64,000 bases of DNA from Candidatus Dojkabacteria bacterium (GTDB taxonomy: Bacteria > Patescibacteriota > Dojkabacteria > B142 > OLB20). The stretch lies in the NCBI GenBank assembly GCA_030583785.1, contig CP129475.1:479559-543558 (forward strand), read 5' to 3'. A model generated the notes under the pieces. That model was not told where the DNA came from and searched no databases. It saw only the letters and a list, made by a program, of their open reading frames with translations. This document shows positions 1 through 47,110 of the stretch, piece by piece; positions within the stretch are counted from its first letter, which is position 1; the number at the start of each line of letters is the position of its first letter. The translations under genes and the position numbers were made by a program.

Positions 1-41
1 GTTGCTATTCGCAACTATCTAACTAGTTTAACCATTTAATT

Positions 42-644
42 ATGGCAACTGCAAAAAAAGAAAAACAAACTGTTAAAGAGAAACAAAGCGTTAAAGAAGA
101 ACCTGTTAAGGTGGTCAATGACTCACATAAATGGTATGTGATCAATTCTTACGCCGGACACGAAAAAAAAGTTTCTAACCAAATCATGCAAAGAGTAAAG
201 GCTAATAATCTTGAAGACCAAATTTCCGAGGTTGTAGTGCCTACACAAGAGAAAATCGAAGTTCGCGAAGGAAAAAAACGAACAGTACAAGAAAAATTCC
301 TACCAGGATATGTTCTGGTAAAAATGGAAATGAACGAAAACACCTGGCAAGTAATAAGAAACACAGAAGGTGTAACCGGTTTTGTCGGAACAGGAAAAAA
401 ACCGACGCCTCTAAACCCGGAAGAAGCAAAAAGAATTCTTGCCTACATGGATGTTGAACAGCCTGCATTCCAAACCAGCTTTGCTGTTGGAGATGCTGTA
501 AAAGTAGTAGATGGGCCGTTTACGGACTTTGTAGGAAGTATTTCAGAAATAAATACCGACAAAGGCCAAGTAAAAGTTCTTTTGTCTGTGTTTGGCAGAG
601 AAACACCTGTGATTCTTGATTTTCTTCAAATAACCAGACTTTAA
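42..644 (+). CDS. nusG: Transcription termination/antitermination factor NusG (NGN + KOW domains)
   Basis: The translation has the NusG N-terminal domain ('[15 protein letters not shown]') and a C-terminal KOW motif ('[19 protein letters not shown]'). It sits immediately upstream of rplK-rplA, the conserved gene order. Confidence 0.9.
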
Positions 645-664
645 TCAATCAAAATATACGAGCT

Positions 665-1099
665 ATGGCAAAAAAAGCAAAACCAATTAAAGTAACAATG
701 AAACTCGAAATTGAGGCCGGTAAGGCTACCCCTGCTCCACCAATCGGACCAGCCCTTGGTCAACATGGAGTAAATATCGGAGAGTTTGTTACAAAGTACA
801 ACGACATGACCCGCGAAATGATGGGAGATGTTATTCCCTGTATTTTGACAGTTTATGAGGACAGATCGTTCGACATTACCTTAAAAACACCACCTGTTGC
901 CAGTTTAATTAAGAAAGCAGCAGGTATTCCAAAAGGTTCAGCAACACCAAATACAAATAAGAAAGGGAAAATTACTCCCAAACAGGTTAGAGAAATTGCC
1001 GAAAGAAAACTCAACGATTTAAATACAAACAATATTGAATCAGCAATCAAGATAGTCATGGGAACAGCTAAATCTTTAGGTGTAGAAATTAGTAGTTAA
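665..1099 (+). CDS. rplK: 50S ribosomal protein L11
   Basis: The N-terminus ('[38 protein letters not shown]...') is the L11 signature. Position in the nusG-rplKAJL cluster agrees. Confidence 0.95.
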
Positions 1100-1122
1100 T
1101 AAATAATTAGTAATTATCAGAA

Positions 1123-1806
1123 ATGAAAAGATCAAAAAAATATACTGCAGTCGCCAAGCTCATTAAAAAAAATACAAACTATAAAACCCTAGAAGCAGCA
1201 GATCTTGTTGGAAAGCTTTCAACAACAAAGTTTGCTGGGGCTGTAGAGCTTGCAATTCAATTAAAACTAACAGAGAAACAGAAGAAAGAAACAATCAGAG
1301 GCACCTATTCTCTTCCAAATAAATTCGGTAAAGAGGTAAAAGTATTACTATTTGCAGACTCTGGCTTCAGCGCAAGCAATACAAATGCAGACATCGTCGG
1401 AGGAGAAGAACTTATTGCTGACATAGAATCAGGGAAACTAGAGTTTGACGCAGTAGTCGCTACTCCAGCAATGATGCCTAAAATTGCCAAACTTGGTAGA
1501 ACACTTGGAAGCAAAGGCTTAATGCCTAATCCTAAGAACGGAACAGTCACAGAAGATCCTAAAGCGGCTATAGAAAAATTAAAGTCCGGACAACGAAACT
1601 TTAAACTAACAGATGCTGGTAGAATAACAGTGGTGGTTGCAAAATCTGACATGAAGGCTGAACAGATAGCAGAAAACATCAAGGCTTTTGCACAAATTAT
1701 TTCGCCAGAGATTGCTAAATTCGGCAATCATTCAATAAAAAAAATAACACTCTGCCCTACAATGGGACCTGCAATATCATTAGATACAGCAGACTTTCTG
1801 AATTGA
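1123..1806 (+). CDS. rplA: 50S ribosomal protein L1
   Basis: 227-aa L1-like protein ('...GLMPNPKNGTVTEDP...') in the conserved position after rplK. Confidence 0.93.
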   Translation: MKRSKKYTAVAKLIKKNTNYKTLEAADLVGKLSTTKFAGAVELAIQLKLTEKQKKETIRGTYSLPNKFGKEVKVLLFADSGFSASNTNADIVGGEELIADIESGKLEFDAVVATPAMMPKIAKLGRTLGSKGLMPNPKNGTVTEDPKAAIEKLKSGQRNFKLTDAGRITVVVAKSDMKAEQIAENIKAFAQIISPEIAKFGNHSIKKITLCPTMGPAISLDTADFLN

Positions 1807-1831
1807 CAAAAACTGCCAATTGAGATAGTAT
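1803..1831 (+). promoter_or_regulatory. Candidate sigma70-type promoter for rplJ-rplL
   Basis: TTGACA (1803-1808), an exact 17-nt spacer, then TAGTAT (1826-1831). It lies in the 115-nt rplA-rplJ spacer, which in model bacteria carries the L10 promoter and leader. Confidence 0.4.
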
Positions 1832-1954
1832 TACCATGTAAATCAGAGTTTCTGTCAAAGACAGTAGGCAAATAAATAAGTCCTACCGAGACGGGGATAA
1901 TTATATTAACTAAAATATAATATGCCGTCAGGCATATTTTTGTTTTATAAACAG

Positions 1955-2482
1955 ATGGCAAAAACAAAAACACAAAAAAAAGAACTTGTTGCTGACTATG
2001 TTGCCAAACTAGATAAGGTAAACACAATATACTTTGTGAAGCCTTTAGGTTTGGGCGTAAATCAAACAACCCTGCTCAAAAAGGCTCTGTACGGACACAA
2101 TACAGACTATCATATTGTAAAAAACACATTATTCAAAATTGCTTTAGAGCAAAAAGGACTTCCTGTTCCCTCCTCTTTAGATAACGGCGAAAATGCTGTT
2201 GTATTCTGTTCCGACGAAGTTAGCGAGATTGCAAAATTAATCAAAGAACACGCCAAAGAAACAGAGAAACTCTCAATTCTAGGCGGTATCTTAAATGGTG
2301 AACTAATCTCAGGTGATCAAGTAGAAGCACTTGCAAGTCTTCCATCCAAGGATCAACTACTTGGTCAGTTGCTTAGCGTATTTAACGGACCTATGCGTGG
2401 ACTCGTTACTGTATTATCGGGCAATATGCGCGAATTTGTGCAAGTATTGTCTGCAATTCAGGATAAAAAGTCCGAAGCATAA
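1955..2482 (+). CDS. rplJ: 50S ribosomal protein L10
   Basis: The ORF track starts at 1922 (MPSGIFLFYKQ-). The internal Met at 1955 ('MAKTKTQKKELVADYVAKL...') matches typical L10 N-termini, so the true start is probably 1955. Followed by rplL. Confidence 0.88.
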   Translation: MAKTKTQKKELVADYVAKLDKVNTIYFVKPLGLGVNQTTLLKKALYGHNTDYHIVKNTLFKIALEQKGLPVPSSLDNGENAVVFCSDEVSEIAKLIKEHAKETEKLSILGGILNGELISGDQVEALASLPSKDQLLGQLLSVFNGPMRGLVTVLSGNMREFVQVLSAIQDKKSEA

Positions 2483-2515
2483 TTTTAATTAAATTATTTA
2501 TTTATCAATATCAAA

Positions 2516-2923
2516 ATGGCAGACGAAACAAAATCAGTAGAACTTACTGGTGATGCAAAGAAAATTGCAGATATGCTCGAAAAAATGACTGTTCTTGAGG
2601 TATCAGAACTTGTCAAAGCTCTAGAAGAGAAATTCGGCGTATCAGCAGCATCTCCAGCTGCAGTAATGGCAGTAGCTCCTGCAGGAGATGCTGGCGCAGC
2701 AGCAGAAGAGAAAGATTCTTTTGATGTCGAGCTTGCAGAAGCTGGCGGAAATAAGATCTCAGTCATTAAAGTTGTAAAGAATGCAACTGGACTTGGACTT
2801 AAAGAAGCTAAAGATCTTGTAGAAAGCGCACCAAAAATGGTAAAAGAAGGTCTTAAAAAAGAAGAAGCAGAAGCTCTTAAGAAAGAACTAGAAGAAGCTG
2901 GCGCAAAAGTAAATCTTAAATAA
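2516..2923 (+). CDS. rplL: 50S ribosomal protein L7/L12
   Basis: Ala-rich flexible hinge ('[23 protein letters not shown]') and the C-terminal '[19 protein letters not shown]...[18 protein letters not shown]' domain are both L7/L12 hallmarks. Confidence 0.95.
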
Positions 2924-2943
2924 GATTTGTTATAGTTAGCTAT

Positions 2944-2981
2944 GAGCGGGTTCGGATAAATCCGAACCCGCTTTATTATTT
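2944..2981 (+). terminator. Rho-independent terminator after rplL
   Basis: Perfect 12-bp stem AGCGGGTTCGGA / TCCGAACCCGCT with a TAAA loop, followed by TTATTATTT. Confidence 0.8.
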
Positions 2982-3045
2982 GGACTTTTCGCTAGTCAGC
3001 AAGTATAATTCAGGTGCATTTTGATTTTAAGTTAGGGAACAATTT

Positions 3046-3720
3046 ATGCAGGATTTTCTTCTTTCAGCTTCCGTCGAACCGTTGGTAATTATCCTGCTCT
3101 TCACCTTACCAATAGCAGTTACCATCATTGGTATCACAAAACACATTATTGGACTAAAGTCCTTAAGCGTATTCATTAGTCTGGCGATGATTTTTGTCTT
3201 CTTTGAATTTGCAACAGATACAACAACAAACACCATTGATATCCAGGCTGGGCTTAGATATGGATTGGTACTATTCTTTTTGACTTTTATATTGGCAACT
3301 GTCGCTTATGGAATAATCAAATCTCTTGCCCTACACTATTATCCAAAACTCGCTCTAGTAATATCTTTTGTTTCTTTTGGTTACTTGGCAATCTTATTCC
3401 TTGCAGATTATTTCAATGTAATGTCTCTGATCAATTTCAATTTGTTTGCTTTACTTCTTTCTGCCCTAATTTCTGAAAGAATTATGAACCTGCTTGCCAG
3501 AAAGCCTTTTAAAACTGCGGTTATGGCAATGCTTGAAAGTACAGTTACAGCATCGCTTTGTTTTATTGTAATTGCTCTTCCTTCTGTTCAAAGCTTCATC
3601 ATCAATTATCCTTTATCTCTAATCCTGCTCTTCCCTATCAACTATTTTGTTGGAAGATTCACAGGTCTTAGAATCAGAGAATATATTCGTTTTCGCGATA
3701 TATTAAATGAAGACCAATAG
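3046..3720 (+). CDS. Polytopic membrane protein (~7 predicted TM helices), 7TM module associated with ATP-grasp amidoligases
   Basis: About seven hydrophobic segments read directly from the translation. The stop lies 5 nt before the start of the ATP-grasp gene. Among described RimK-type amide-ligase systems, this arrangement resembles the '7TM + ATP-grasp' arrangement. Confidence 0.55.
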   Translation: MQDFLLSASVEPLVIILLFTLPIAVTIIGITKHIIGLKSLSVFISLAMIFVFFEFATDTTTNTIDIQAGLRYGLVLFFLTFILATVAYGIIKSLALHYYPKLALVISFVSFGYLAILFLADYFNVMSLINFNLFALLLSALISERIMNLLARKPFKTAVMAMLESTVTASLCFIVIALPSVQSFIINYPLSLILLFPINYFVGRFTGLRIREYIRFRDILNEDQ

Positions 3721-3725
3721 ATTCA

Positions 3726-5147
3726 ATGGGAATCTTAACCATTTACAAAAATCGAAAGAAAGTCCTCGGATTAAATGAAAGATCTTTAAACTATATCCGC
3801 AGATATAACAAGAAGAAGGCCGTCGAAATTGCTGATGATAAACTCCTAACAAAAAAAGTACTTAACAAAGCAGACATACCTACTCCTGCACTAATAGCAA
3901 CTATAGAAAACTCAGCTGATCTTGAATCTTTCAACTGGGATAGTCTTCCTCCAAGTTTTGTAATGAAACCAGTACAAGGTTTAGAAGGTGGAGGAATTGA
4001 GATACTCTACAATCGCGACAAAAACGGAGAATGGATAAAGGCCGACAGAGAAAGAGTTAGTATCGCAAAGTTGAGAATGAAAGCTAAAAGCATCCTTGAC
4101 GGCAGATTTTCATTGCATAATGCACCAGACAGAATCATGTTTGAAGAAAGAATCAAACCGCATAAATCTTTTAAGTACTATACATACAAAGGAACCCCAG
4201 ATGTTCGTGTGATTGTTTTCAATAATGTTCCTATTATGGCCATGTTAAGGCTACCTACCAGAGAATCAGAGGGTAAGGCTAATCTGGATAAGGGCGCCCT
4301 CGGTTTAGGCATAGATATGGCAAAAGGAGCTACAACTTATGCAATTTCTGGAAAAAGTGGCAATATCGAAATGATCCCCGGCACAAAACTTCGAGTCGGA
4401 GGTTTGAAAATCCCCTTCTGGAATCAAATACTTGAGAATGCAATTAAAGCTCAAAAGGCAACCAACCTAAATTTTGCCGGTATTGATTTTCTAATAGACA
4501 GAGAAAATGGTCCTGTCATTGTTGAAATGAATGCTAGACCAGGGTTATCAATACAGCTCGCCAATGAAGACGGTATGCGCTGGAGACTTAAAAAGGCCGC
4601 TTTTCTTAAAGTGAAAACTGCAGAAAAAGGTATTAGACTTGCCAAAGACCTATTTGGAGGAGAGATCGACGAAGAGATTGCCTCAATTTCTGGTAAGCAG
4701 GTTATCGGCATTTACGAAAACATTAAGCTTATTGGCAAAGACATGAAAGAAGTTCTAGCCAAAGCCAAAATTGATACGGGAGCAGACAGTTCGTCAATCG
4801 ATATAGCAGTTGCAACAAAGCTTGGTTTTGGAGACCTGATTAATGAATGGGCTGCAATTAAAATCGACCAGAATATTTCTAGGGATGATTGGTTGAAGAT
4901 GGAGGCAGAATTAAAGGCAAAATACCTAAACAAGTTTGAAGACCTGGTTAACTTAGACTATGTTAGATCATCCCACGGTGCAAGTATTCGTATATATGTA
5001 CGCATAACTATGCAAATACAAGAAACAAAGTTTGAAACAATAGCCTCGATATACGATAGAAGTAAGCTCACCTATCCCGTTATAGTGGGGAGGAAATCTC
5101 TAACTAGGTTCTTAGTTGATCCAAGCCAAAGAAAGTCACAAAAATAA
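3726..5147 (+). CDS. RimK-like ATP-grasp ligase fused to a C-terminal retropepsin-like (DTGA) aspartic protease domain
   Basis: ATP-grasp core ('FVMKPVQGLEGGGIEIL', 'VIVEMNARPGLSIQ'). The C-terminal ~125 aa carry 'IDTGADSSSIDIA' at nt 4773-4784, the retropepsin-like signature of RimK-associated protease domains. Confidence 0.75.
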   Translation: MGILTIYKNRKKVLGLNERSLNYIRRYNKKKAVEIADDKLLTKKVLNKADIPTPALIATIENSADLESFNWDSLPPSFVMKPVQGLEGGGIEILYNRDKNGEWIKADRERVSIAKLRMKAKSILDGRFSLHNAPDRIMFEERIKPHKSFKYYTYKGTPDVRVIVFNNVPIMAMLRLPTRESEGKANLDKGALGLGIDMAKGATTYAISGKSGNIEMIPGTKLRVGGLKIPFWNQILENAIKAQKATNLNFAGIDFLIDRENGPVIVEMNARPGLSIQLANEDGMRWRLKKAAFLKVKTAEKGIRLAKDLFGGEIDEEIASISGKQVIGIYENIKLIGKDMKEVLAKAKIDTGADSSSIDIAVATKLGFGDLINEWAAIKIDQNISRDDWLKMEAELKAKYLNKFEDLVNLDYVRSSHGASIRIYVRITMQIQETKFETIASIYDRSKLTYPVIVGRKSLTRFLVDPSQRKSQK

Positions 5148-6422
5148 ATGCTTTCCAAAGATACATTTCCAAAAGTCTTAGTTACAGGAACCAAAGGTAA
5201 AACCAGCATTGTCCATCTGATTTCGACGATTCTTAGATCCACAAGAAATAATATTCTTAGAGTTGATACGGGTGGTTCTTATCTTAATGAAAAGCAAATA
5301 ACAAGCTACGATGACTCTGTCAGGAATTTTGGAAAATCTCCTAATGTCAGACCAGGCAGATACCTTTACTGGCACTTAAAAAATCTACCCTCAAACGAAA
5401 TCAATACTTTTATGACTGTTCTCGAAGGGGCTTTGAGCTGTTCACATGAAGGTACTGGGCTTGAAGAATATGGAGGCCATGATATAGGAATCCTATCAAA
5501 TATCTTTCGCGATCATATAAATTTTGAAACTATAAAAAACGAAGATGATATTTATGACAGGAAATCATTTGTGTTCAAACAGATTTGTAGTAATGGATTA
5601 TTCATCACTACACTCGACAACAAATACAATCTCCGCGCTTTAAACGAAAGCACTCTACAAGAAAAATCAATTCGTAAAATTGCAATCAGTATTGACATAA
5701 AACCTGAACAAGTCCATGAAACTATGCATAAATATAACCTTGAAGACATACTATATTTAGATAATGGCGAAGCAAAGAGTGAAAGAAAAGGCAAGATATT
5801 TAAATTAACTGATTATCCTTACTATCTTGACGGTTTTGGAACGGCTATGCTTACAAACGCCTTGATCGCTTCAGCTGCCTGTCTAGAATACCTCAATCCT
5901 AAAACAATAGAGGAGGTGCTTACTTCTTATAGAATCCCCAAGGAATATGGCAGAATGCTTGTCTATAAGAGAGGAGAACAACACATAGTTCTTGATTATG
6001 CACATGAGATTGAATCACTAAAGATCGTTACTGAGACATTCAGAAAATATTACAAAAAAGATCCATACATCATTACGAGAGTGGCTTCAGATAGAAAAGA
6101 TGGATTTCTGAAAGAGTTTGCAGATAAGCTCAGCTTATTGGAAAACATAAAGGGACTTACAATCTACGATAGAATTGATGGTATCAATTCCAAGATGTAT
6201 CGTGTTGGAAAACTTAAACGCGAGATTGGAGAGAGCTCAGGACTAATTTACAAAAGACTGAAGAATAATAATCCTCTCTATCCCATAAAATGGATACTGA
6301 ATGAACAAGATGCTCTATCTGATGCTTGTGCAAACGATCAGAAACTAATCATTCTAATACATTCGAATCTGGACAAGTCAATCAAACTACTCGAACAAAA
6401 TGGTTTTGTACGAGATAAATAA
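5148..6422 (+). CDS. Mur-ligase-family amide ligase (PgsB/CapB- or CphA-C-terminal-like)
   Basis: N-terminal P-loop 'VLVTGTKGKTSIV' (nt 5187-5207) and a 'LDYAHEIESLK' motif corresponding to the Mur-ligase DxAHN region. Its start codon directly abuts the stop of the preceding gene (TAA-ATG). Confidence 0.7.
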   Translation: MLSKDTFPKVLVTGTKGKTSIVHLISTILRSTRNNILRVDTGGSYLNEKQITSYDDSVRNFGKSPNVRPGRYLYWHLKNLPSNEINTFMTVLEGALSCSHEGTGLEEYGGHDIGILSNIFRDHINFETIKNEDDIYDRKSFVFKQICSNGLFITTLDNKYNLRALNESTLQEKSIRKIAISIDIKPEQVHETMHKYNLEDILYLDNGEAKSERKGKIFKLTDYPYYLDGFGTAMLTNALIASAACLEYLNPKTIEEVLTSYRIPKEYGRMLVYKRGEQHIVLDYAHEIESLKIVTETFRKYYKKDPYIITRVASDRKDGFLKEFADKLSLLENIKGLTIYDRIDGINSKMYRVGKLKREIGESSGLIYKRLKNNNPLYPIKWILNEQDALSDACANDQKLIILIHSNLDKSIKLLEQNGFVRDK

Positions 6423-7419
6423 GAGTTTAAATAATATTATGCATACAAAGAAACTATTCGATGCAAAAGAGGTATTATTTTTGCAGGATCCGAAATATCA
6501 GGACACAGAGAATATTTTAAACAGACTTGTCCCAGGATACAATAAAATATCGTTAACAGAATTATTCATTTCTCCAGATAAGCTATATAAACCCAATGGT
6601 GAGTCGTTAAGCCTCGAAGAAATCAAACTTATCATATTTGCTCCCGGGCTCAATTATACTTATAAGCATTCATTAATAAAAGTTCTTAAACATCATTACC
6701 CAGAAATTCTATTACGGAATATTGATACTGTACCTTATTCAAACTGGCACTGGGAGAACAAATTTGAGCTTTTTTCGGCGCTCATTCACAAATCCGTAGA
6801 AACAGTAAAGCTTCCTCAAACTTATGTCATAAATCCTCAAGCAAGTAAAGAAATAACCCAGCAATTTAGAGAAAGTGTGATGCCTAACTTTCCATTTGTA
6901 CTGAAAGCAGCACTTGGAAGCCAAGGGAAGAGTGTAAAAAAGATAAACAATGCTCCAGAGTTTAATATTTTTCTCGATTCAATCCTCAATATTGAGGGTT
7001 TTGATTCTAAGAGAAATTATTATCTGATGCAGGAAATGATCTATTCTCCTATGAGATCGGATTATCGAATAATTGCAATACAAGGGAAGATAATTGGGGG
7101 AATGGAAAGAATCTCAAATAAAAAAGACGAATTTAGAACTAACTTCTCGTTAGGAGGAGATATAAGAAAGATGGAATCAATTCCAGAAGATATAGAAGAT
7201 GCAGTGAAGGAAATCTATGAAAAAACACGGCTAACAACAATAGGATTCGACTTTATTCGAGACAATAATAGCGATCTTTATTTACTCGAAATAACAACGG
7301 CCCCTCAGAGAGATGGTTTTAACAGCTTACATGGGTTTGATGCTCTAGAAATAAAGTTGCTCAAGCTTCTAGAAAGAGACCAACTTAGAACAATCAACTA
7401 CCCCGTAAACTTCTCTTGA
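6400..7419 (+). CDS. Second RimK-like ATP-grasp ligase
   Basis: 'FPFVLKAALGSQGKSVKK', 'IIGGMERISNKKDEFRTNFSLGG' and 'IGFDFIRDNNSDLYLLEITTAPQ' follow the ATP-grasp pattern. Overlaps the Mur-ligase gene by 23 nt. Confidence 0.7.
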   Translation: MVLYEINKSLNNIMHTKKLFDAKEVLFLQDPKYQDTENILNRLVPGYNKISLTELFISPDKLYKPNGESLSLEEIKLIIFAPGLNYTYKHSLIKVLKHHYPEILLRNIDTVPYSNWHWENKFELFSALIHKSVETVKLPQTYVINPQASKEITQQFRESVMPNFPFVLKAALGSQGKSVKKINNAPEFNIFLDSILNIEGFDSKRNYYLMQEMIYSPMRSDYRIIAIQGKIIGGMERISNKKDEFRTNFSLGGDIRKMESIPEDIEDAVKEIYEKTRLTTIGFDFIRDNNSDLYLLEITTAPQRDGFNSLHGFDALEIKLLKLLERDQLRTINYPVNFS

Positions 7420-8398
7420 TAACATCAAGATGTTCTAATGATTCACTTACACCATTAACGACTGTATGCAGAGGGTTATCAACTACATGTGCTGGTACAC
7501 CTGTAGCCTTAGTGAATAGCTCATCAATGTTTCTGATCAAAGCAGTACCTCCGGATAACACCATTCCCCTATCTATTATGTCTGAAGATAATTCTGGTGG
7601 AGTCTTTTCGAGGACATTCTTAATTGAACCTACGATTTGATTAAGTACAACTTTAATCGAATCAACAATATCGTTGGAATTCACAACAACCGAAATAGGC
7701 ATACCCGATGTTGCATCACGACCTCTGACTTCCATCTCTAAAGGCGTATCAAGTAAAGTTGCACTTCCAATTTCAATTTTGATTTTTTCAGCCATTTGCT
7801 CTCCAACTAGAATATTGTGCCTTCTGCGCATATGGTTTGCGATTGCATCATTTACTGCATCTCCAGCGATTCTTTTAGACTCAAAAGTGACAATTCCGTT
7901 CATAGATATAACAGCGATTTCCGAAGTGCCCCCGCCCATATTAACAATCATGTTTCCTGCCGAAGTGCTGATAGGGAGTTTTGCACCTATTGCAGCCGCA
8001 ATCGGCTCAGGGATCAAATAGATTTTTCCTGCACCTGCCGATGCCGCAGCTTCGATGACAGCTCTTTCTTCAACTGATGTAACACCAGCTGGAACACTAA
8101 TCATAACTTCTGGTTTGAAGAATCGCGTTCTGCCAAGTGCCTTATTCAAGAGATTGCTAATTAATGCTTCTGTGAGTTTATAACTTGCGATAACACCCTG
8201 TCTGATTGGTCTTCTAGCGACGATATTTCCGGGAACCTTTCCCAACATTTCTTTAGCTTCTTCACCAATAGCAAGAACCTGTTTATCATCTAATGAAATT
8301 GCCACTACTGTTGGCTCTGAAACAACAACACCCCTACCCTGCACTGCTACAAGCGAATTGGCCGTCCCCAAATCAATAGCTACTTTTTTACCTGCCAT
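7394..8398 (-). CDS. mreB: Rod-shape-determining actin-like protein MreB
   Basis: 'VAIDLGTANSLVAV...' at the N-terminus and actin-fold phosphate/adenosine motifs throughout. Confidence 0.9.
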   Translation of the reverse strand: MAGKKVAIDLGTANSLVAVQGRGVVVSEPTVVAISLDDKQVLAIGEEAKEMLGKVPGNIVARRPIRQGVIASYKLTEALISNLLNKALGRTRFFKPEVMISVPAGVTSVEERAVIEAAASAGAGKIYLIPEPIAAAIGAKLPISTSAGNMIVNMGGGTSEIAVISMNGIVTFESKRIAGDAVNDAIANHMRRRHNILVGEQMAEKIKIEIGSATLLDTPLEMEVRGRDATSGMPISVVVNSNDIVDSIKVVLNQIVGSIKNVLEKTPPELSSDIIDRGMVLSGGTALIRNIDELFTKATGVPAHVVDNPLHTVVNGVSESLEHLDVIKRSLRGS

Positions 8399-8458: not shown

Positions 8459-9919
8459 ATGCTAAAAAGTAAATTTCTAACAATCATGGTTGTGCTTGCC
8501 GTATTCCTACTGTTTGCAGGAATAGCGGCTATTGCGATTATTATATCACGCGGAGGAACTCTTACTGACTCTGGGCTGGTTCTCGAATCAGGGGTTGTTC
8601 GAATACAAACAGATCCTGCTGATTTAATTGCAAATTTCTATCTTAATGATAAAGAAATTAAACTACAAGACAAGCGCATAAACGGTCTACTAGCTGGGGA
8701 ATACACAATCCGTATTGAGGCAGAAGGTTATTCGTCTTGGGAAAAAACCATTAAAGTTGACTCGGGAATAGTTTTAGACATCAGCGCAAAACTCTATCCC
8801 GTTGAACTTGCTCTTTCACAGCTTACAAATACCAATATTGATCGAGCATTCTTCTCTGAATCGGGAGAATATGTATATTATACGGTTACAAATTCCCAGT
8901 TTGGTTCAGATATTGGTATCTGGCGCATGAGACTTGCACAGAGCCAATTTATTTTTAGCCCCAATCAAAACCAGCCTGAAAAAATCTCTAATCTAACTCC
9001 GGAACTTAAAGATTTATTCTCTGCAGGCTCTTATGAGCTTATTCCAAGCCCAGATAACAATCGTCTAATGATCAAGGACGATAATAACACCATATTTGTA
9101 TTAAGCATCGCCTCTAATCCATCTGTAAGTCCGACCAACCTAGAAACAACTCTAGGGTTTCGAATTGATCATGCAGCTTGGTTTAACAATTCTGGCTCTA
9201 TTGTCGTTCGCAGTGGAAAGCTATTAGTTGAATACAATCTTAATAACTCAATTACCACTTTAGTAAACTTTGCAAACGAAGATGATCTTATTTACGCCGC
9301 AAACAATTTTGTAGTCTATGTCATAAGAGATAATGCAATTTGGCAGTATCAAAATTCGGTTCTTACACCTCTTAAGCTAGAAAATATTCAGTTACCCGAG
9401 CAAATAGATTCTATCTACACACCAACCAATAATAGGCGCTTTCTAGCGCTAAAATCGGGTGAGAATTATTACTATCTTGACTCAGAAAAAAGTCTGCTCT
9501 ATAAAATCGAAGAGCCTGATTTGGAATACTACGCCTTTTCTCAAGACGGCAGAGCCCTATTGTTTAAGAACAATGATTTACTGCTTGCTTTCAGTGTAAG
9601 AGAAATTATTGCTCTAAATACAATTGAAACCAAACTTATCAATACAGAACTTGCTATTGTTAAAGACAAAGATATTGCGAAATTTGTTCCTCAGTCATCA
9701 CATTTTCTACACTATAAAAATGGTGACGATCATGTGATTACAGTTACAGAAAAAGACGGATCGAATCAGATCACATTGCTAAATAATGCAGGAATAAAAA
9801 ATTCAGACTTCGGATTTGACTCAACTGGAAACAGATTCATTGTTTTACTTCAAGATGAATCTGCAGATATTGAGAATGCAAGTTCCAACTTGTATACGAT
9901 TAACCTTGAGAAGCCTTAA
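8459..9919 (+). CDS. Membrane-anchored hypothetical protein with PEGA-like domain and probable beta-propeller region
   Basis: N-terminal TM helix. A PEGA-like segment ('GEYTIRIEAEGYSSWEKTIKVDSGIVLDISAKLYP'). The remainder is rich in beta-strand-type repeats. Confidence 0.45.
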   Translation: MLKSKFLTIMVVLAVFLLFAGIAAIAIIISRGGTLTDSGLVLESGVVRIQTDPADLIANFYLNDKEIKLQDKRINGLLAGEYTIRIEAEGYSSWEKTIKVDSGIVLDISAKLYPVELALSQLTNTNIDRAFFSESGEYVYYTVTNSQFGSDIGIWRMRLAQSQFIFSPNQNQPEKISNLTPELKDLFSAGSYELIPSPDNNRLMIKDDNNTIFVLSIASNPSVSPTNLETTLGFRIDHAAWFNNSGSIVVRSGKLLVEYNLNNSITTLVNFANEDDLIYAANNFVVYVIRDNAIWQYQNSVLTPLKLENIQLPEQIDSIYTPTNNRRFLALKSGENYYYLDSEKSLLYKIEEPDLEYYAFSQDGRALLFKNNDLLLAFSVREIIALNTIETKLINTELAIVKDKDIAKFVPQSSHFLHYKNGDDHVITVTEKDGSNQITLLNNAGIKNSDFGFDSTGNRFIVLLQDESADIENASSNLYTINLEKP

Positions 9920-10032: not shown

Positions 10033-10632
10033 TTATTTCTTGCCAAGCCTGCCTTCAACACCTGTGAGTTTTGCGCTATATGTTGAATAATCCATAACCT
10101 CAATGTTCTCAAACCATAAGGCCATTTCTTCGTCTGCCTCAGCAACTTCACCGGATGCATGAACTAGGTTATAGAATGGGCGTTTGTGGGCATTTGCAAG
10201 TTCTGCGTTATCGATCGAAAAATCTCCTCTTATAGTCCCTGGCAGTGCGTTCGCAGGATTAGTCTCTCCAACAAGTTTTCGACCTATCTTAACTGCTCCA
10301 GGACCTTCCCAGACCATAGCTAAAACGGGGCCAAAAGTTAAATATTCTACATTCCACTGTTTTATCAGCTTCCCAATCTCTATCGGATCTTCTGATCCAA
10401 GCTCCTTGATTGGATCGATTCCTTTTTCTTTATACTCACTGAGTGTCCTTTCCCCTACTTTTCGATACCACTTTTCTGAGTCTGGATAGTGTGACTTGCC
10501 CATGTCTTCTGTTCCTTGAATAAATTCAAGTGCGACAAGCTTCAGACCTATTCGCTCGAACCTCTTAATTATTTCTCCCATAAGCCCCCTGGCAACTCCA
10601 TCGTGTTTAATAATAATTACTGTCTTTTCCAT
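10033..10632 (-). CDS. ndk: Nucleoside diphosphate kinase (long form with internal insertion/C-terminal extension)
   Basis: 'TVIIIKHDGVARGLMGEIIKRFERIGLKLVA' and the catalytic-His region 'NLVHASGEV'. At 199 aa it is longer than the canonical ~140 aa. Confidence 0.85.
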   Translation of the reverse strand: MEKTVIIIKHDGVARGLMGEIIKRFERIGLKLVALEFIQGTEDMGKSHYPDSEKWYRKVGERTLSEYKEKGIDPIKELGSEDPIEIGKLIKQWNVEYLTFGPVLAMVWEGPGAVKIGRKLVGETNPANALPGTIRGDFSIDNAELANAHKRPFYNLVHASGEVAEADEEMALWFENIEVMDYSTYSAKLTGVEGRLGKK

Positions 10633-10651
10633 AATGTCAGTTGATAATAAA

Positions 10652-11275
10652 TTAGGTAAGAGCTTCGTATGAACCGGTGTAATCTAAGCGCTCATAATCG
10701 CTTAGATCTTTGTATTTGTCTCCGAACCAATGCTTGATTTCTCTCTTTGCCTCTTCTGCAGAATCTGAACGATGCACCAAGGTTGAGAATACTATTCTTC
10801 CTGATTTAACCGCAAATTGAGGAGTATCAAATCCGAAGTCACCTCGAATCGATCCCACATCTGCAACTGTTGGATCTGTCCTACCTACAAGTTTCTCGAT
10901 CACCTTTACTGCTTGATTGCCTTCCCAGACAGAAATAACGACTGGGCCACTTACAAGATATCGTACTAACGAATCATAGATTTTGTTTCCAATTTCGAGT
11001 TTATCGACTGTGCCTAGATCAGTGAGTATTTGTTTGGCATCATTGTTGTAATTATTGTAGGTTTTCTCTCCCATCGTGGTAAGCCATTCTGTAGTTCCGG
11101 GATAATTACCTCTGGCTTGTGCTTCTGTCGCCTGAATCATTCTTGCCGCTACAAGTTTGAGACCAATTCTTTCCAGTCGAGAGAATATCTCTCCGACGAG
11201 TCCTCTTTTTACGCCATCTGGTTTTATCATTAAAAAAGTTTTCTCAATATTACTGAACTGTTTCTGCGGCATCAC
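10652..11275 (-). CDS. ndk: Nucleoside diphosphate kinase paralog (second tandem copy)
   Basis: 'TFLMIKPDGVKRGLVGEIFSRLERIGLKLVA' and 'LVHRSDSAEEA'. 207 aa, immediately upstream of the first copy. Confidence 0.85.
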   Translation of the reverse strand: MMPQKQFSNIEKTFLMIKPDGVKRGLVGEIFSRLERIGLKLVAARMIQATEAQARGNYPGTTEWLTTMGEKTYNNYNNDAKQILTDLGTVDKLEIGNKIYDSLVRYLVSGPVVISVWEGNQAVKVIEKLVGRTDPTVADVGSIRGDFGFDTPQFAVKSGRIVFSTLVHRSDSAEEAKREIKHWFGDKYKDLSDYERLDYTGSYEALT

Positions 11276-11282
11276 AAAAAGG

Positions 11283-11906
11283 TTAAGATTTAATATAGGG
11301 ATTAGCTATCGAGATAATACTATCTCTAACTTCTTCTATAGATTTGTCTCCATTTATAACAACCCATTTTCCGAAAATATTGTCGCTGGCCATGTTTTTG
11401 AATGCTTTTCGCAGTAACTCCTGTTTTTTTATACTTCCTTCGTATTTATCAAGTCCTTCTGTATGTCCCTCTTCATTAAGCTTTCGCTGCATAGCAATCT
11501 TAGGATCAACATCAAGAAAAATTACAAGATCTGGAACAGGAATGCTAAGCAACTTTGCATAATCAAGGGCATCTTCTACTTGTAGAGCCTTCTCCAAAAT
11601 ACATTGATAAGCTATATTTGTGGTGAAGTAGCCATCGGCAATGAAATGCTCAGTTTTGCTTTTAACAGTTTTCTTAATCTTCTCCTTCCATAGAAGCTGA
11701 TCTAAAGCAAAGGCACTAAATAGCGTCTTAGAGTCGATACTAATTTCGTCATGAATTGCAGGATGAATAACATGGTGATAAATAACACTATCGTGATCTG
11801 GGAAACCAACCGTATCGATGATTTGATCAGAGGATAACGCTGCAACAAGTTCTTCTCTTTGCCTTCCCTTGCCTGCACCATCGATGCCTTCGATTACGAT
11901 AAACAT
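11283..11906 (-). CDS. tmk: Thymidylate kinase
   Basis: 'MFIVIEGIDGAGKGRQ' P-loop and the overall dTMP-kinase pattern. Confidence 0.85.
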   Translation of the reverse strand: MFIVIEGIDGAGKGRQREELVAALSSDQIIDTVGFPDHDSVIYHHVIHPAIHDEISIDSKTLFSAFALDQLLWKEKIKKTVKSKTEHFIADGYFTTNIAYQCILEKALQVEDALDYAKLLSIPVPDLVIFLDVDPKIAMQRKLNEEGHTEGLDKYEGSIKKQELLRKAFKNMASDNIFGKWVVINGDKSIEEVRDSIISIANPYIKS

Positions 11907-11954
11907 ATTGGATTATGAATGATTTAGGCTATTTTAGCAGATAGGAATTCAAGT

Positions 11955-12770
11955 TCAATGCTTAAACCAGTATTTTTTCCCATCAGAATAAATATGAACG
12001 GTGTTATTCTGATCAGTTCTATAAACATCTATGCCTGAGTCTTGCAATCGTTGAAGCACTTCTGGATGCGGATGATTAAATTTATTATTCTTACCTGCGG
12101 ATATTATTGCAACCTCAGGATTAGTTGACTCGAGGAGCTTATTTGAAGTACTTGTTTTACTACCATGATGAGCAATTTTCAGCACATCAATGTCAGATAC
12201 CAGTATTTCTGCTTCTATTTTCTCTTCAATATCTCCAGTAAAAAGCATATCGAAATCGTTATAGCGCAATTGAAAAACCAACGAATTATCGTTTGCTGAC
12301 AATGTGCTTCTATCTAAGCTTTTATCAGGCCAGAGAAAATCAAGAACCGTACAGCATCCAAGAACAATTGATTCTCCTGCAAATTTAGTTGTTGATTTTA
12401 CATTTGACATGAGCTTTTCAAGAAAAGCGTAAGCTTGAGAAGAAGATTTGTGATCAGAGATTATTAAATTCTTAATCTTGTATCGAGCTAAAACTTCAAC
12501 AGCTCCGCCAAGATGATCAAGGTCTGGATGAGTTATTACTAGATAATCTATCTCTCTTATCCAAACCGGAAGGATTTGTCCAAGCCTGGATAATACTGAT
12601 GCGTCGGGACCTCCATCAACAAGAAGATATTTTCCGTCTGCAGACCTGATAAGTATCGAATCTCCTTGTCCAACTTCTAGAACACTAATTTGTAGGATAT
12701 TTTGCTGTTCGTACTTTAGATAAGGAAAGTTAGTGATTACTAATAACAGAACCATTAGGAGTTTTATCAT
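11955..12770 (-). CDS. comEC: ComEC/Rec2 C-terminal metallo-beta-lactamase domain (separate ORF)
   Basis: 'LVITHPDLDHLGG' MBL motif, preceded by one TM helix. Overlaps the upstream ComEC membrane ORF by 41 nt in a different frame. Confidence 0.8.
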   Translation of the reverse strand: MIKLLMVLLLVITNFPYLKYEQQNILQISVLEVGQGDSILIRSADGKYLLVDGGPDASVLSRLGQILPVWIREIDYLVITHPDLDHLGGAVEVLARYKIKNLIISDHKSSSQAYAFLEKLMSNVKSTTKFAGESIVLGCCTVLDFLWPDKSLDRSTLSANDNSLVFQLRYNDFDMLFTGDIEEKIEAEILVSDIDVLKIAHHGSKTSTSNKLLESTNPEVAIISAGKNNKFNHPHPEVLQRLQDSGIDVYRTDQNNTVHIYSDGKKYWFKH

Positions 12771-14289
12771 CGGAAAATTTGTGAAATAAATAAAGAATTA
12801 CCAAAAACAAGATAAACATCATAGATAAAGTGTCCCTGTTGTCGTTTATTGTAATAACTCCATTCTCAATTGCAGAAAGAGCTTTGACAACTTGTACAAA
12901 ATATTCCAACACGCTCCATAAGGGGATGTAAATTAATACTACAAATGTTGGTAGAACGAAACTAACTGCTATTGCTGCAATTCCTAACAACATAATTATG
13001 GGGATACACCAAGCGATTAATACATTTGCAATCGGACTAAGAAGCGGTATTGAGCCGAATGAATTAAACGATATTGGAAGAGTTGCGAGCGTTGCCGCAA
13101 CAGTTACAGCAAATTCTGACCTTATATTCTCTCCAAGTAATTTAGGAAGGAAGCGTTTTACAACAGGTTCAAGCAAGATGAGACCAAGCGTTGCCGCAAA
13201 GGACAGTTGGAGGCTTAAAGAATAAAGCATTAAGGGATTAATTATTAGCATTGTTATCATTGCTAAAGAAAGCGATGCACTAACCGCCCCTCTTCTGCCG
13301 GATAGTTTTCCAAGTAACATTGCATAACCCATGATAGTTGCTCGAAGTGCAGGAAGATTGTCTACACCAACTAATACTAAAAATGTGCTTACCAGAATGA
13401 TTGATGCATATAATAAATGCTTTCTATTAAACACACCAGCTAAAGCACAGACAGATGTTATTAACATTGTGACATTAAATCCGGATACAGCAATAACATG
13501 AGTTGTTCCAGTTCTTGAGAGGTCGTTTCCGAAACCAAGCATGAATTCTTCTCTTGTACCAATCAGCATACCTATGGCGAGTGCGGCATGAGGTTCGGGT
13601 AAATTCGTTTGCATCTGATTTCTAATGTAGTTTCGGAGATCGCGAATCATAACTCGAATATCTGCAGATTCTTGAGGAAAAAGTTTATAATCATGAACAT
13701 CTGCCAAGGCGAAAACACCCTTGGTCTTAAGGAATAATGGATAGTCAAACTCTTCAAGCTTTTCGGGAGTTTCTAATAACGACCTAAACTCTATTTCTTG
13801 ATATTGATCAATCTCTGAATATCGACTAAGTCGAATCTGAACTAATCCTCCATTAATGCTAGTTTCTGCTTCATTTAAAGTTTTTACCGAGGTTGGACTT
13901 ATTAGGGCATACTTAAACCTGCCCTGCTGATAAGGGATTGAGGACACGAAGCCTCTGACAGTCACCTCATTTTCTAAATAATTTGCTATATGCCCTTCTC
14001 GGGAATGAATCTGGATAGATTCAGTCAAAGAAATTGAAGTAAGGAAACACAGAAATATAAATATAAAAGAGAATCGAAAATTATTGAATACAAACATACC
14101 CATTGAAACCATTGTTATTGCATTAGCCCAATAAACTAAACCCGAAACATGGAGATATATAGTTACAACAATTAAAAGATAGCTGATCGGAAGCGGATAC
14201 GCTTTTAAATAGCCTCCTAATATAGACAAGCTATAAACTGATTTGGGATTTGAGTTTCTCGAAAGTTGCATTGCCAATACCTGATACAT
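12730..14289 (-). CDS. comEC: ComEC/Rec2 N-terminal polytopic membrane (competence channel) part
   Basis: Many TM helices and a periplasmic OB-like region ('GQGDS...' is in the next ORF). Typical ComEC DUF4131 + competence-domain layout, located directly downstream of comEA. Confidence 0.78.
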   Translation of the reverse strand: MYQVLAMQLSRNSNPKSVYSLSILGGYLKAYPLPISYLLIVVTIYLHVSGLVYWANAITMVSMGMFVFNNFRFSFIFIFLCFLTSISLTESIQIHSREGHIANYLENEVTVRGFVSSIPYQQGRFKYALISPTSVKTLNEAETSINGGLVQIRLSRYSEIDQYQEIEFRSLLETPEKLEEFDYPLFLKTKGVFALADVHDYKLFPQESADIRVMIRDLRNYIRNQMQTNLPEPHAALAIGMLIGTREEFMLGFGNDLSRTGTTHVIAVSGFNVTMLITSVCALAGVFNRKHLLYASIILVSTFLVLVGVDNLPALRATIMGYAMLLGKLSGRRGAVSASLSLAMITMLIINPLMLYSLSLQLSFAATLGLILLEPVVKRFLPKLLGENIRSEFAVTVAATLATLPISFNSFGSIPLLSPIANVLIAWCIPIIMLLGIAAIAVSFVLPTFVVLIYIPLWSVLEYFVQVVKALSAIENGVITINDNRDTLSMMFILFLVILYLFHKFSDDKTPNGSVISNH

Positions 14290-30266: not shown

Positions 30267-30268
30267 GT

Positions 30269-30386
30269 TCTGGCAATGACCTATTTTCCCAGCCAGCTTC
30301 CCGGCAAGTATCGTCGGCGCTGCTGCGTTTCACTTCTCTGTTCGGTATGGGAAGAGGTGGTGCCACAGCGCTACTATCACCAGACT
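30269..30386 (-). rRNA. 5S rRNA
   Basis: The reverse complement contains 'CCCATACCGAACAGAGAAGTGAAACGCAGCAGCGCCGA', the conserved 5S loop-B/helix-III region. The ends pair (TCTGGTG / GCCAGA). Confidence 0.8.
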
Positions 30387-30517
30387 TCCGATACTATAAC
30401 TAGCAGCGGATGTCTGTTGACAGACATTTTCTGAATAATTGATCACTGAACTTCATTCATCCGTGGAGGCAAATGTTTTGGGCGTAAATGTATTTTTGTT
30501 AAAACCATTCACACAAT

Positions 30518-33603
<3,086 letters not shown>

Positions 33604-45328: not shown

Positions 45329-46835
<1,507 letters not shown>

Positions 46836-47110
46836 AACACTTTATGGCCGTGTTTTCAGCCAGCTTTGTATGTAAACACACAAAGACTTTAATCATCGTC
46901 TTAAATGTGCAAGCACATTTAAGCCGGAATTATCTGTAAAGATTGACGTGAACATTTAATATACCCAATAAAGGGTACATTCCTGTCACCTTTTCTGTTG
47001 TCAAGGAGCTTGACTTACTAATTCAATGAGTGAAAAGTAGTATCAAAGCACTCTGATTAGAGTGTATAGCGATTTTACCAGACCAAGCGGTAAATAGTCA
47101 AAGGTTTTTA

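Follow-up and report, generated by a model that had tools for sequence, protein, structure and literature searches.

What would a cell make with two ATP-grasp ligases, a Mur-ligase-like enzyme and an aspartic protease, encoded in one tight row behind a gene for a membrane protein? The question is raised by four co-directional genes, here called g1 to g4, in a 64,000-nucleotide (nt) stretch of Candidatus Dojkabacteria bacterium (assembly GCA_030583785.1, contig CP129475.1, positions 479,559 to 543,558), which we refer to as the window. The original prediction took them for a disassembled cyanophycin synthetase or poly-amino-acid ligase system and could match the combination to no known pathway. 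Our comparison of related loci shows that g1 and g2 form a self-sufficient core, and that g3 and g4 are one among several ligase cassettes that can stand in for each other. The mechanism that we propose on this basis, a membrane-associated, ribosome-independent peptide-ligase system making a branched acidic peptide, has in our estimate an even chance of being right as a whole.

The open reading frames (ORFs) lie where they had been placed, with the 5-nt, 0-nt and overlapping junctions described for them, and the reported motifs GTKGKTS, DYAHE and DTGA are present in the translations. The domain calls were correct throughout, namely a seven-transmembrane (7TM) protein, an ATP-grasp fused to a retropepsin, a Mur ligase and a RimK-like protein, with Pfam scores above the gathering thresholds (Table 1). 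A spacer of 5 nt separates g1 from g2, the ATG of g3 follows the TAA of g2 at once, and g4 overlaps g3 by 23 nt when read from its first ATG, an in-frame ATG at its M14 leaving a 16-nt gap instead. The same four-gene order, 7TM gene, g2-type fusion, g3-like and RimK-like gene, recurs in unrelated genomic contexts (L029, L036 and L112; L-numbers denote related loci found elsewhere), and the cluster is far beyond chance. We regard the architecture of the locus and its family assignments as very nearly certain.

The division into core and cassette is seen in strains that are otherwise almost identical. The locus L161, together with 14 similar places, encodes an identical 7TM protein and matches the window at 98.05 % identity over positions 1–5131 and at 98.98 % over 7386–7581, while the stretch in between, with g3 and g4, is replaced by 4.4 kb (L161 8087–12479) that have no detectable similarity to the window. 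This alternative cassette holds a 162-residue ORF without Pfam match, a 237-residue ATP-grasp fragment and three RimK-like ATP-grasps. Its breakpoints are sharp, one lying 16 nt before the stop codon of g2 and the other at the 3′ end of mreB, and in public contigs it occurs in 15 places as compared to 5 for the version of the window. In two further Dojkabacteria loci (L164 8001–11105 and L165 864–3964) the 7TM gene and the fusion gene are all that lies between rplL and mreB, and nothing separates the fusion gene from mreB, so that the core of two genes also occurs free of accessory ligases. At this syntenic position, WS6 bacterium OLB20 (MreB 93 %, NusG 90 % protein identity in the flanks) carries yet another set, consisting of an ATP-grasp of the L-amino-acid-ligase (LAL) type, a g3-like ligase and two RimK-like ORFs. 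Because of the replacement in L161, the absence in L164 and L165 and the different set in OLB20, g1 and g2 are assigned to a core and g3 and g4 to a cassette. The G+C content of the cassette lies at 0.34–0.35, that of g2 at 0.386 and that of the whole window at 0.396.

A metagenome scan with an alignment of g2 relatives returned 434 relatives among the first 600 pattern matches, and the counts given here refer to the best 80. All 80 are full-length fusions of ATP-grasp and retropepsin. A 7TM gene lies directly upstream of the fusion in 70 of these loci, and in the other ten the contig starts at or no more than 260 nt from the fusion gene. One to three additional RimK-like ATP-grasp genes follow downstream in 63 of the 80. 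When pairs of loci with 60–75 % identical g2 proteins were compared, the 7TM proteins had a median identity of 63 %, as opposed to about 21 % for the best-matching downstream ligase, for which half of the pairs offered no match covering 60 % of its length. The core is widespread, mostly in bacteria of the candidate phyla radiation (CPR). The expectation that the cluster is conserved as a unit is thus borne out in L029, L036 and L112, but it is not one fixed unit: a conserved two-gene core is joined by a strain-variable cassette of two genes.

The first core protein, g1, has seven hydrophobic segments, matches Pfam PF14402 7TM_transglut at 38.6 bits (gathering threshold 25) and is modelled by AlphaFold2 as a confident, all-helical structure (predicted local distance difference test, pLDDT, 83.8). 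Its match to the NCBIfam RloB model NF052267 (40.7 bits, cut-off 900) is confined to the 7TM part of that model (positions 316–507 of 508), and it carries neither a transglutaminase-like nor any other extracytoplasmic domain. Some 7TM_transglut proteins elsewhere (as in L138 5473–7026 and L160 5282–6991) have N-terminal PKD domains in place of the inactive transglutaminase domain of RloB. The 7TM partner varies in its extracytoplasmic module, which g1 lacks; the PKD domains on some 7TM proteins imply an N-out, C-in topology. A cytoplasmic motif after the seventh transmembrane segment, G[KR][WF]TGLRxxEYxRFR, is common to g1, where it lies at the C-terminus (window 3640–3720), and to all other 7TM partners. 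g1 then ends in the acidic NEDQ, and Dojkabacteria 7TM proteins in general have acidic tails after the motif (NEDQ, NEEE, NDEE, EEVE and similar). This tail recalls the Glu-Glu acceptor end of ribosomal protein S6. We considered an acidic 7TM C-terminus as a general acceptor tail and rejected it, since the feature is conserved in Dojkabacteria, yet the tail is basic in most other clades.

In the second core protein, g2, a ligase and a protease share one chain. The ligase part matches Pfam PF14397 ATPgrasp_ST at 206.5 bits (threshold 31.4), and residues 10–293 align with nearly the full length of the model TIGR02291 'alpha-L-glutamate ligase-like' at 250.5 bits (E 2e-74, cut-off 314.2), a family of which we take RloC to be a member. 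Against the RimK family TIGR00768 it scores 66.7 bits, under the cut-off of 143.4, and the match to the CphA G domain is weak (65 residues, E 1e-9). The protease part matches Pfam PF05618, a retropepsin-like family also called 'Zn_protease' or RimB-like, at 38.9 bits (cut-off 27) and the NCBIfam models RloA3, RloA2, RloA and RimB at 23–38 bits, where the cut-offs are 200–280. It aligns with the solved 'putative ATP-dependent zinc protease' structures 9G58 and 9G59 at the catalytic DTGA and at a C-terminal DR-x(5)-P-x(3)-G. No transmembrane segment, signal peptide or hydrophobic leader was found in g2, and because it lacks a hydrophobic segment both domains are predicted to be cytoplasmic.

The first cassette protein, g3, matches Pfam PF08245 Mur_ligase_M at 46.9 bits (threshold 24), with Mur_ligase_C staying under its threshold (19.8 versus 28.4). 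Its best NCBIfam match is cyanophycin synthetase, TIGR02068, at 118.7 bits over model positions 562–860 (PRK14016: 479–862). The corresponding values were 45–48 bits for MurE (cut-offs 257–373), 30.7 for FolC (162.65), 35.2 for MurC (335), 20.6 for MurD, 23.5 for MurF and 12.7 for PgsB/CapB TIGR04012 (E 0.039, cut-off 222.7), and the MurT model fell short of E 0.1. Among solved structures the sequence of g3 matched CphA1 only, residues 7–416 corresponding to CphA1 488–867 (7TXV/7LG5), which is the M domain of that enzyme (PMC9427784). The g3 residues K18, T19, T41 and E93 align with K499, T500, T522 and E558 of CphA1; in TeCphA1 the ligands are the Lys and Thr of the P-loop and a Mg-chelating Thr and Glu (PMC9427784). 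These four positions are invariant or nearly so across 32 family members, and every family-invariant residue is retained in g3. As its P-loop begins at residue 14, g3 lacks domain 1, i.e. the N-terminal UDP-binding domain of MurC to MurF, as does the CphA M domain. The AlphaFold2 model of g3 (pLDDT 90.1) returned CphA1 for all of the top six Foldseek matches (best E 1e-23, TM-score 0.77), followed by pseudomurein MurE at 3e-17 and MurE at 1e-16.

The family to which g3 belongs behaves in the same way. For each of the 32 members taken from genomes, cyanophycin synthetase is the top-scoring model (best E 2e-59, MurE 6e-28), and the PgsB model matches only five of them. A profile search of 1.84 billion representative proteins ranked some 110 free-standing proteins of 400–435 residues first and, directly after them, proteins of 860–900 residues matched at about residues 480–865, as expected of CphA1. 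In a simple distance tree (neighbour-joining rather than maximum likelihood, Kimura distances computed in numpy, 66 sequences, 399 columns, 100 bootstraps) monophyly of the free-standing family has 100/100 support, and the family groups with the fused CphA-type proteins against ordinary Mur ligases, again with 100/100. An ordinary peptidoglycan, folate or PgsB enzyme is ruled out by profile scores, fold ranking and tree, and the locus does not turn out to be a set of FolC, cell-wall Mur and D-Ala-D-Ala ligase (Ddl) genes. Of the two likenesses proposed in the original prediction, that to the C-terminal half of cyanophycin synthetase is upheld, and that to PgsB or CapB is negligible. According to scores, fold and tree, the small free-standing family represented by g3 is sister to the CphA M domain; by the curated definition g3 is not a cyanophycin synthetase, yet among relatives of the CphA M domain it is the closest. 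We call these proteins M-like ligases.

The second cassette protein, g4, matches Pfam PF08443 RimK at 64.2 bits (threshold 21), aligns with the RimK structures 5ZCT and 4IWX (E ~1e-7) and retains the ATP-binding Lys, the R-x-N substrate motif and the Mg-binding Asp and Glu. Cyanophycin synthetase was absent among its NCBIfam matches at E 0.1 or better.

By gene linkage, the M-like ligase works with ATP-grasp ligases. We collected 36 loci with M-like family members from context look-ups and a genome scan, some of which duplicate one genome, so that the effective number is about 30. Taking the bin labels as given, nearly all are from CPR bacteria (WS6, Saccharibacteria, Peregrinibacteria, Pacebacteria, Moranbacteria and others), a few being labelled Gammaproteobacteria or Bdellovibrionales. 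An ATP-grasp gene lies within 3 kb of the M-like gene in 32 of the 36, with a contig end cutting off two of the four exceptions; for ordinary Mur-ligase loci in the same scan the count was one in 44. The partners are of several kinds. In the three loci that share the gene order of the window, the RimK-like proteins pass the TIGR00768 cut-off (153–174 bits versus 143.4). A g2-type fusion, three RimK-like genes and the M-like gene make up L018 and L110, and a LAL-type ATP-grasp gene precedes the M-like gene in L001–L004, L016, L021 and L022. In L014 the 7TM gene and the fusion are followed by a free-standing ATP-grasp resembling the CphA G domain (6926–7936, 249.7 bits, TIGR02068 positions 153–471), directly 5′ of the M-like gene, which reads as a literally split G and M pair. 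L114 has the 7TM gene, the fusion, two RimK-like genes and a fused CphA-like protein of 853 residues (10331–12892, 688.5 bits, cut-off 850, model positions 85–860). In the Saccharibacteria loci L013 and L020 the M-like gene stands beside a stand-alone RimB-like retropepsin and a RimK whose scores (346.8 and 333.7 bits) pass the S6-glutamate-ligase equivalog cut-off of 331.

In one branch, L006, L007 and L012, the 7TM gene, an ATPgrasp_ST gene and a MATCAP-family metallopeptidase gene are met by a convergent M-like gene. The ATPgrasp_ST proteins (L006 10393–11670, L007 9890–11176 and L012 9769–11055, all on the minus strand) keep a retropepsin-like C-terminal domain in which DTGA has become KTGR or NTGR and an insert of about 45 residues is missing, so that this protease domain looks inactivated and its function replaced. 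As a MATCAP-family gene is present where the DTGA is dead, a peptidase appears to be obligatory and to have been replaced non-orthologously.

Further features were noticed in these surveys. A recurrent protein of about 590 residues (L094 8409–10181, L089 8313–10127 and others) combines an N-terminal RimK-like ATP-grasp with a C-terminal domain of about 300 residues that has a faint DUF3541 match. That C-terminal domain is a separate 309-residue ORF in L005 (2341–3270), directly 3′ of the M-like ligase and followed by a GNAT acetyltransferase. Tandem M-like ligase genes occur in L025 (7953–10495) and L026 (7953–10489), in bins labelled Gammaproteobacteria, with no ATP-grasp detected nearby.

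Although no pathway had been named for the combination, close relatives exist in the rloABC and rimBK systems of Pseudomonas, of which the core is a variant; all folds of the locus and its general chemistry are familiar. rloABC of Pseudomonas aeruginosa, described by Lormand et al. (mBio 2025, PMC12239564), is built from the same three blocks, a 7TM_transglut protein (RloB), a TIGR02291-like cytoplasmic ATP-grasp (RloC) and a PF05618 retropepsin with DTG (RloA), and its ligase and protease oppose each other genetically. Deletion of rloB or rloC suppresses the defects of mutants without all three RloA proteases, and therefore the ligase and the membrane protein make something that the protease must remove (PMC12239564). 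RimK makes poly-alpha-L-glutamate and RimB trims those tails. RimB and RloA are reported to cut runs of at least eight Glu, with Arg insertions blocking cleavage (PMC12239564). Unlike RloB, g1 has no periplasmic inactive transglutaminase domain, and whereas RloA is secreted and stands alone, the retropepsin of g2 is joined to the ATP-grasp at the C-terminal end, lacks a signal peptide and is predicted to be cytoplasmic. The window proteins all stay under the NCBIfam cut-offs, and the locus has both a Mur-like ligase and an extra ATP-grasp cassette, neither of which is part of rloABC. RloB is reported to be 96 % proteobacterial (PMC12239564), whereas the version seen in the window comes mainly from CPR bacteria.

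RimK and RimB share with g2 the pairing of a cytoplasmic ATP-grasp with a cytoplasmic retropepsin, RimB removing poly-Glu, and the Saccharibacteria M-like ligase adjoins RimK equivalogs and RimB-like genes; g2 and g4, however, stay under the RimK cut-offs, and the window adds a 7TM protein and a Mur-like ligase. An analogy is also offered by tubulin, where ATP-grasps of the TTL/TTLL type add residues to acidic C-terminal tails and a MATCAP metallopeptidase removes them. Bacterial MATCAP (PF08014) genes take the place of the active retropepsin in the one branch of the operon family described above, and there is none in the window. The Mur-ligase-fold amide ligase and small integral membrane proteins of PgsBCA(E)/CapBCA, which make and export an amino-acid polymer, provide an analogy for a possible role of g1; g3, however, is not PgsB-like, g1 is neither PgsC nor PgsA, and the Pgs system has no ATP-grasp or protease.

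In CphA1 (domains N-G-M; PDB 7LG5, 7WAE) the G domain extends a poly-Asp backbone, the M domain adds Arg to the side-chain carboxylates and the N domain is a cryptic peptidase making primers (PMC9427784, PMC9262961). Fold, P-loop, Mg ligands and DYAH motif are common to g3 and the M domain, and the proteins of the operon taken together offer the same three activities of peptidase, ATP-grasp and Mur-like ligase. They reside, however, on separate polypeptides, the g3 chain having neither a G nor an N domain, and in place of an M16-like N domain the part of peptidase falls to an aspartic retropepsin or to a MATCAP-family enzyme. The ATP-grasp partners are of the RimK, RloC or LAL type instead of the G type, G-like partners occurring only in the relatives L014 and L114. 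In addition, the operon has a membrane protein, and its ligase set varies between strains. The description as a disassembled cyanophycin synthetase is literal for L014, with a fused CphA-like counterpart in L114. In the window neither ATP-grasp resembles CphA-G, that of g2 being RloC-type and that of g4 RimK-type. The product of the operon is probably not an Asp-Arg polymer.

From the domain identities, catalytic motifs, phylogenetic placement, gene linkage and cassette polymorphism observed here we infer the chemical steps, the substrates and the role of the 7TM protein in the following mechanism. In a first layer, the conserved core of 7TM protein and RloC-type ligase/retropepsin would act as 'writer' and 'trimmer' of an acidic, probably glutamate-rich chain, and a second layer would be the swappable cassette of extra amide ligases, represented here by the M-like ligase and the divergent RimK-like ATP-grasp. 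The ATP-grasp ligases would lengthen an alpha-linked chain of Glu/Asp at its C-terminal carboxylate, by way of an acyl-phosphate. The M-like ligase would then add a second amino acid to side-chain carboxylates, as the M domain of CphA1 puts Arg on the Asp beta-carboxylate, yielding a branched, cyanophycin-like peptide. Undecorated acidic stretches would be cut by the retropepsin for trimming, primer formation or turnover, and the 7TM protein would hold this machinery to the membrane, with a possible part in exporting or presenting what is made. The content of the cassette would set the composition of the product, which would differ between strains.

Several observations weigh against this mechanism. 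Found in just 4 of the 80 core loci, the M-like ligase is an accessory and not a central component. In several genomes the two-gene core stands by itself, and for this reason its target may be a genome-encoded protein, with no free polymer being made. g3 scores far under the TIGR02068 equivalog cut-off of 850 bits, and its sequence does not reveal its amino-acid specificity. g4 scores 75.7 bits against TIGR00768, again under the cut-off, and its E-x-N Mg motif reads E-I-T (7288–7296), with Thr in place of a Mg-binding Asn that is kept in nine of nine aligned relatives. An indexed search of 5.8 billion proteins found only identical copies of g4, relatives surfacing solely through gene-neighbourhood searches and profile hidden Markov models, at 24–28 % identity. 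g4 is an extreme outlier and may be weakly active or of changed function.

That near-identical strains carry different ligases points to a strain-variable amino-acid polymer or peptide tag. Taken further, the locus could do for amino-acid polymers what O-antigen and capsule loci do for their products: on a constant membrane platform of 7TM protein and ATP-grasp/protease, interchangeable ligase cassettes, some with free-standing CphA-M-like enzymes, would each specify a different branched, cyanophycin-like peptide polymer, such as poly-alpha-Glu carrying gamma-linked side residues, that ultrasmall CPR cells would display or secrete as a strain 'barcode' under diversifying selection by host or phage. 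We put this forward as a speculative extension that is unlikely to hold.

An alternative that we judge improbable, though the likeliest of the rivals, is that the operon writes and erases the C-terminal tail of a genome-encoded protein, as RimK and RimB do on S6 and TTL and MATCAP on tubulin, the target being its own 7TM tail or a ribosomal protein. It draws on the homology to RimK/RimB and RloC/RloA, on the replacement of the retropepsin by MATCAP, a family of C-terminal tail carboxypeptidases, and on the occurrence of the core without extra ligases. The acidic end of Dojkabacteria 7TM proteins after the conserved cytoplasmic motif would suit a tail substrate, but the basic tails of most other clades would not. 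The cluster lies beside rplJ-rplL here and beside an L31 gene in L001–L004, which would fit a ribosomal target; it is, however, isolated from rplL by a terminator and a separate promoter-like site, and in L029 and L036 it lies away from ribosomal genes. The M-like ligase and up to three more ATP-grasps better suit the assembly of a composite peptide.

Modification of the cell wall ranks lower in our estimate and is rather doubtful. The ligases would add or branch amino acids on lipid II or a stem peptide and the 7TM protein would handle a lipid-linked substrate. The Mur-ligase fold of g3 is in line with this, and so is MurT, whose substrate is lipid II although this Mur-like enzyme has no UDP-binding domain; but g3 lacks the UDP-binding domain and clusters with CphA rather than with the cell-wall Mur ligases in all 100 bootstraps, the MurT model did not reach E 0.1 for it, and ordinary Mur-ligase loci showed ATP-grasp linkage only in the single case mentioned above. 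The cluster is convergent with mreB in the window and next to a class A penicillin-binding protein gene in L014, although the mreB adjacency is specific to Dojkabacteria synteny. P. aeruginosa rlo mutants have cell-shape, beta-lactam and hypo-osmotic phenotypes (PMC12239564), but proteases of the RloA type cut poly-Glu, a sequence that is no peptidoglycan motif.

Poorer still are the prospects of a split but genuine cyanophycin synthetase making ordinary multi-L-arginyl-poly-L-aspartate as a nitrogen and carbon store. The sister-group position of g3, the separate G-like and M-like genes of L014 and the fused CphA-like gene of L114, both in the same operon type, are in its favour. Annotation pipelines label these M-like proteins 'cyanophycin synthetase', and a 2026 preprint lists the enzyme in some Saccharimonadia genome bins; the same preprint, however, found no cyanophycinase there. 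The window has no G-domain-like ATP-grasp and no CphA N domain, its ATP-grasps are of the RloC and RimK types, from families known for alpha-glutamate ligation, and g3 misses the equivalog cut-off as stated above. A storage polymer would moreover leave unexplained the 7TM partner, a protease for acidic peptides and the replacement by three ATP-grasps in near-identical strains. Lastly, that g3 and g4 are a recently acquired, decaying cassette no longer working with the core is suggested by the orphan status and substituted Mg ligand of g4, the lower G+C content (0.34–0.35 against 0.40 for the window) and the dispensability in sister strains, but is highly improbable given that both ORFs are intact, tightly coupled to g2 and 99.9–100 % identical in independent assemblies, that g3 retains all family-invariant residues and that the order of g2, M-like and RimK genes is conserved in the distant genomes L029, L036 and L112.

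The genomic setting agrees with an independent unit. The cluster follows nusG and the genes for L11, L1, L10 and L7/L12, and with a terminator-like hairpin and a promoter-like site separating rplL from g1, it looks like a transcription unit of its own (Table 1). Coupling to the ribosomal-protein operon is ruled out by these two elements and by the loci L029 and L036, where the cluster is found away from ribosomal genes. At the other end, mreB is convergent with g4 and covers its last 26 nt, so that the last residues of g4 are read from the strand opposite to the 3′ end of mreB. Public Dojkabacteria contigs, including JYPD01000029.1 of GCA_001567305.1, match the first 9.7 kb of the window at 99.9–100 % identity, and g1 is 100 % identical to an NCBI protein of 'Candidatus Dojkabacteria bacterium'. 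Together with the synteny to OLB20, this places the organism in the Dojkabacteria (WS6) within the CPR. A cluster for a peptide made on ribosomes and modified after translation (RiPP) of the graspetide or microviridin kind was rejected: the junctions of 5, 0 and −23 nt leave no intergenic space and the operon holds no small ORF for a precursor, and maturase models matched g4 only at E 1e-3 to 1e-2. A known anti-phage defence system was likewise rejected, as no PADLOC model matched g1–g4 at E 0.01 or better.

Table 1. Coordinates and properties of the g1–g4 locus and its elements (window positions)
Feature	Position	Strand	Size or residues	Description
Terminator-like hairpin	2944–2973	+	13-bp stem	3′ of rplL; G+C-rich stem, 8 G-C pairs, T-rich tail
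Promoter-like site	2981–3009	+		TGGACT-17 nt-TATAAT; 10/12 matches, consensus match only; g1 37 nt downstream
g1	3046–3720	+	224 aa	7TM_transglut membrane protein
g2	3726–5147	+	473 aa	ATPgrasp_ST ligase + retropepsin fusion
g2 ATP-grasp domain	3780–4595	+	residues 19–290	RloC-type (predicted)
g2 E-x-N Mg site	4524–4544	+		Intact, EMNARPG
g2 retropepsin domain	4701–5141	+	residues 326–472	RimB/RloA-type (predicted)
g2 DTGA	4773–4784	+	residues 350–353	Catalytic motif
g3	5148–6422	+	424 aa	Free-standing Mur-ligase-fold enzyme
g3 P-loop	5187–5207	+	residues 14–20	GTKGKTS
g3 DYAHE	5994–6008	+	residues 283–287	
g4	6400–7419	+	339 aa	Divergent RimK-like ATP-grasp; alternative start 6439
Ligase cassette (g3 + g4)	5132–7385			Strain-variable; G+C 0.34–0.35

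Several other features of the window were recorded. Divergent from mreB lies a gene for a membrane-anchored PEGA-domain protein of 486 residues (8459–9919, plus strand), whose position is kept in all Dojkabacteria loci examined. Tandem nucleoside-diphosphate-kinase-like genes (10033–10632 and 10652–11275, both minus strand) stand beside a thymidylate kinase and a ComEC-like competence gene, and the tandem arrangement is also conserved in L164 and L165. The rRNA genes are unlinked (30268–33591 and 45330–46836, both minus strand), with about 11.7 kb of protein-coding genes between 23S-5S and 16S, and the 23S match of 3069 nt compared to a model of 2925 nt suggests an insertion. A 655-residue ORF (34561–36528, minus strand) has no Pfam match at E 1e-5 or better and neighbours an ORF of 1264 residues (36827–40621, minus strand).

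The association of 7TM, ATP-grasp and peptidase genes was reportedly, and probably first, noted in the 2009 amidoligase survey of Iyer et al. In the literature covered, which did not include that survey, we found no description of free-standing M-like ligases, of their pairing with RimK-, LAL- or RloC-type ligases or of the cassette polymorphism, nor did we find a paper joining cyanophycin-like terms with RimK, or MATCAP, DUF1704 or QEGLA with ATP-grasp. The combination, the free-standing family and the modularity at strain level thus appear undescribed so far.

For the enzymology, the M-like ligases, as a free-standing sister family to the M domain of CphA with ATP-grasp partners of at least four kinds, provide candidate enzymes for new branched poly-amino-acids, and g2, g3 and g4 are small and soluble, unlike g1. 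The family also bears on how the three-activity CphA1 was assembled. The 'cyanophycin synthetase' label is entering metabolic reconstructions, and the findings presented here are evidence against reading it as storage of Asp-Arg cyanophycin. The rlo and rim systems, which affect stress tolerance, antibiotic sensitivity and biofilm in Pseudomonas, are linked to a far larger and more modular CPR family, whose accessory ligases hint at the chemistry of an acidic backbone with side-chain decoration. In episymbiotic, uncultured bacteria few variable, possibly surface-related loci are understood, and a swap of ligase cassettes between strains with 98 % identical flanks is the pattern of a surface-structure locus. 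Should the O-antigen-like reading be true, these bacteria would possess a new class of non-ribosomal biopolymers, and an origin of cyanophycin synthetase by fusion of such modules would be suggested.

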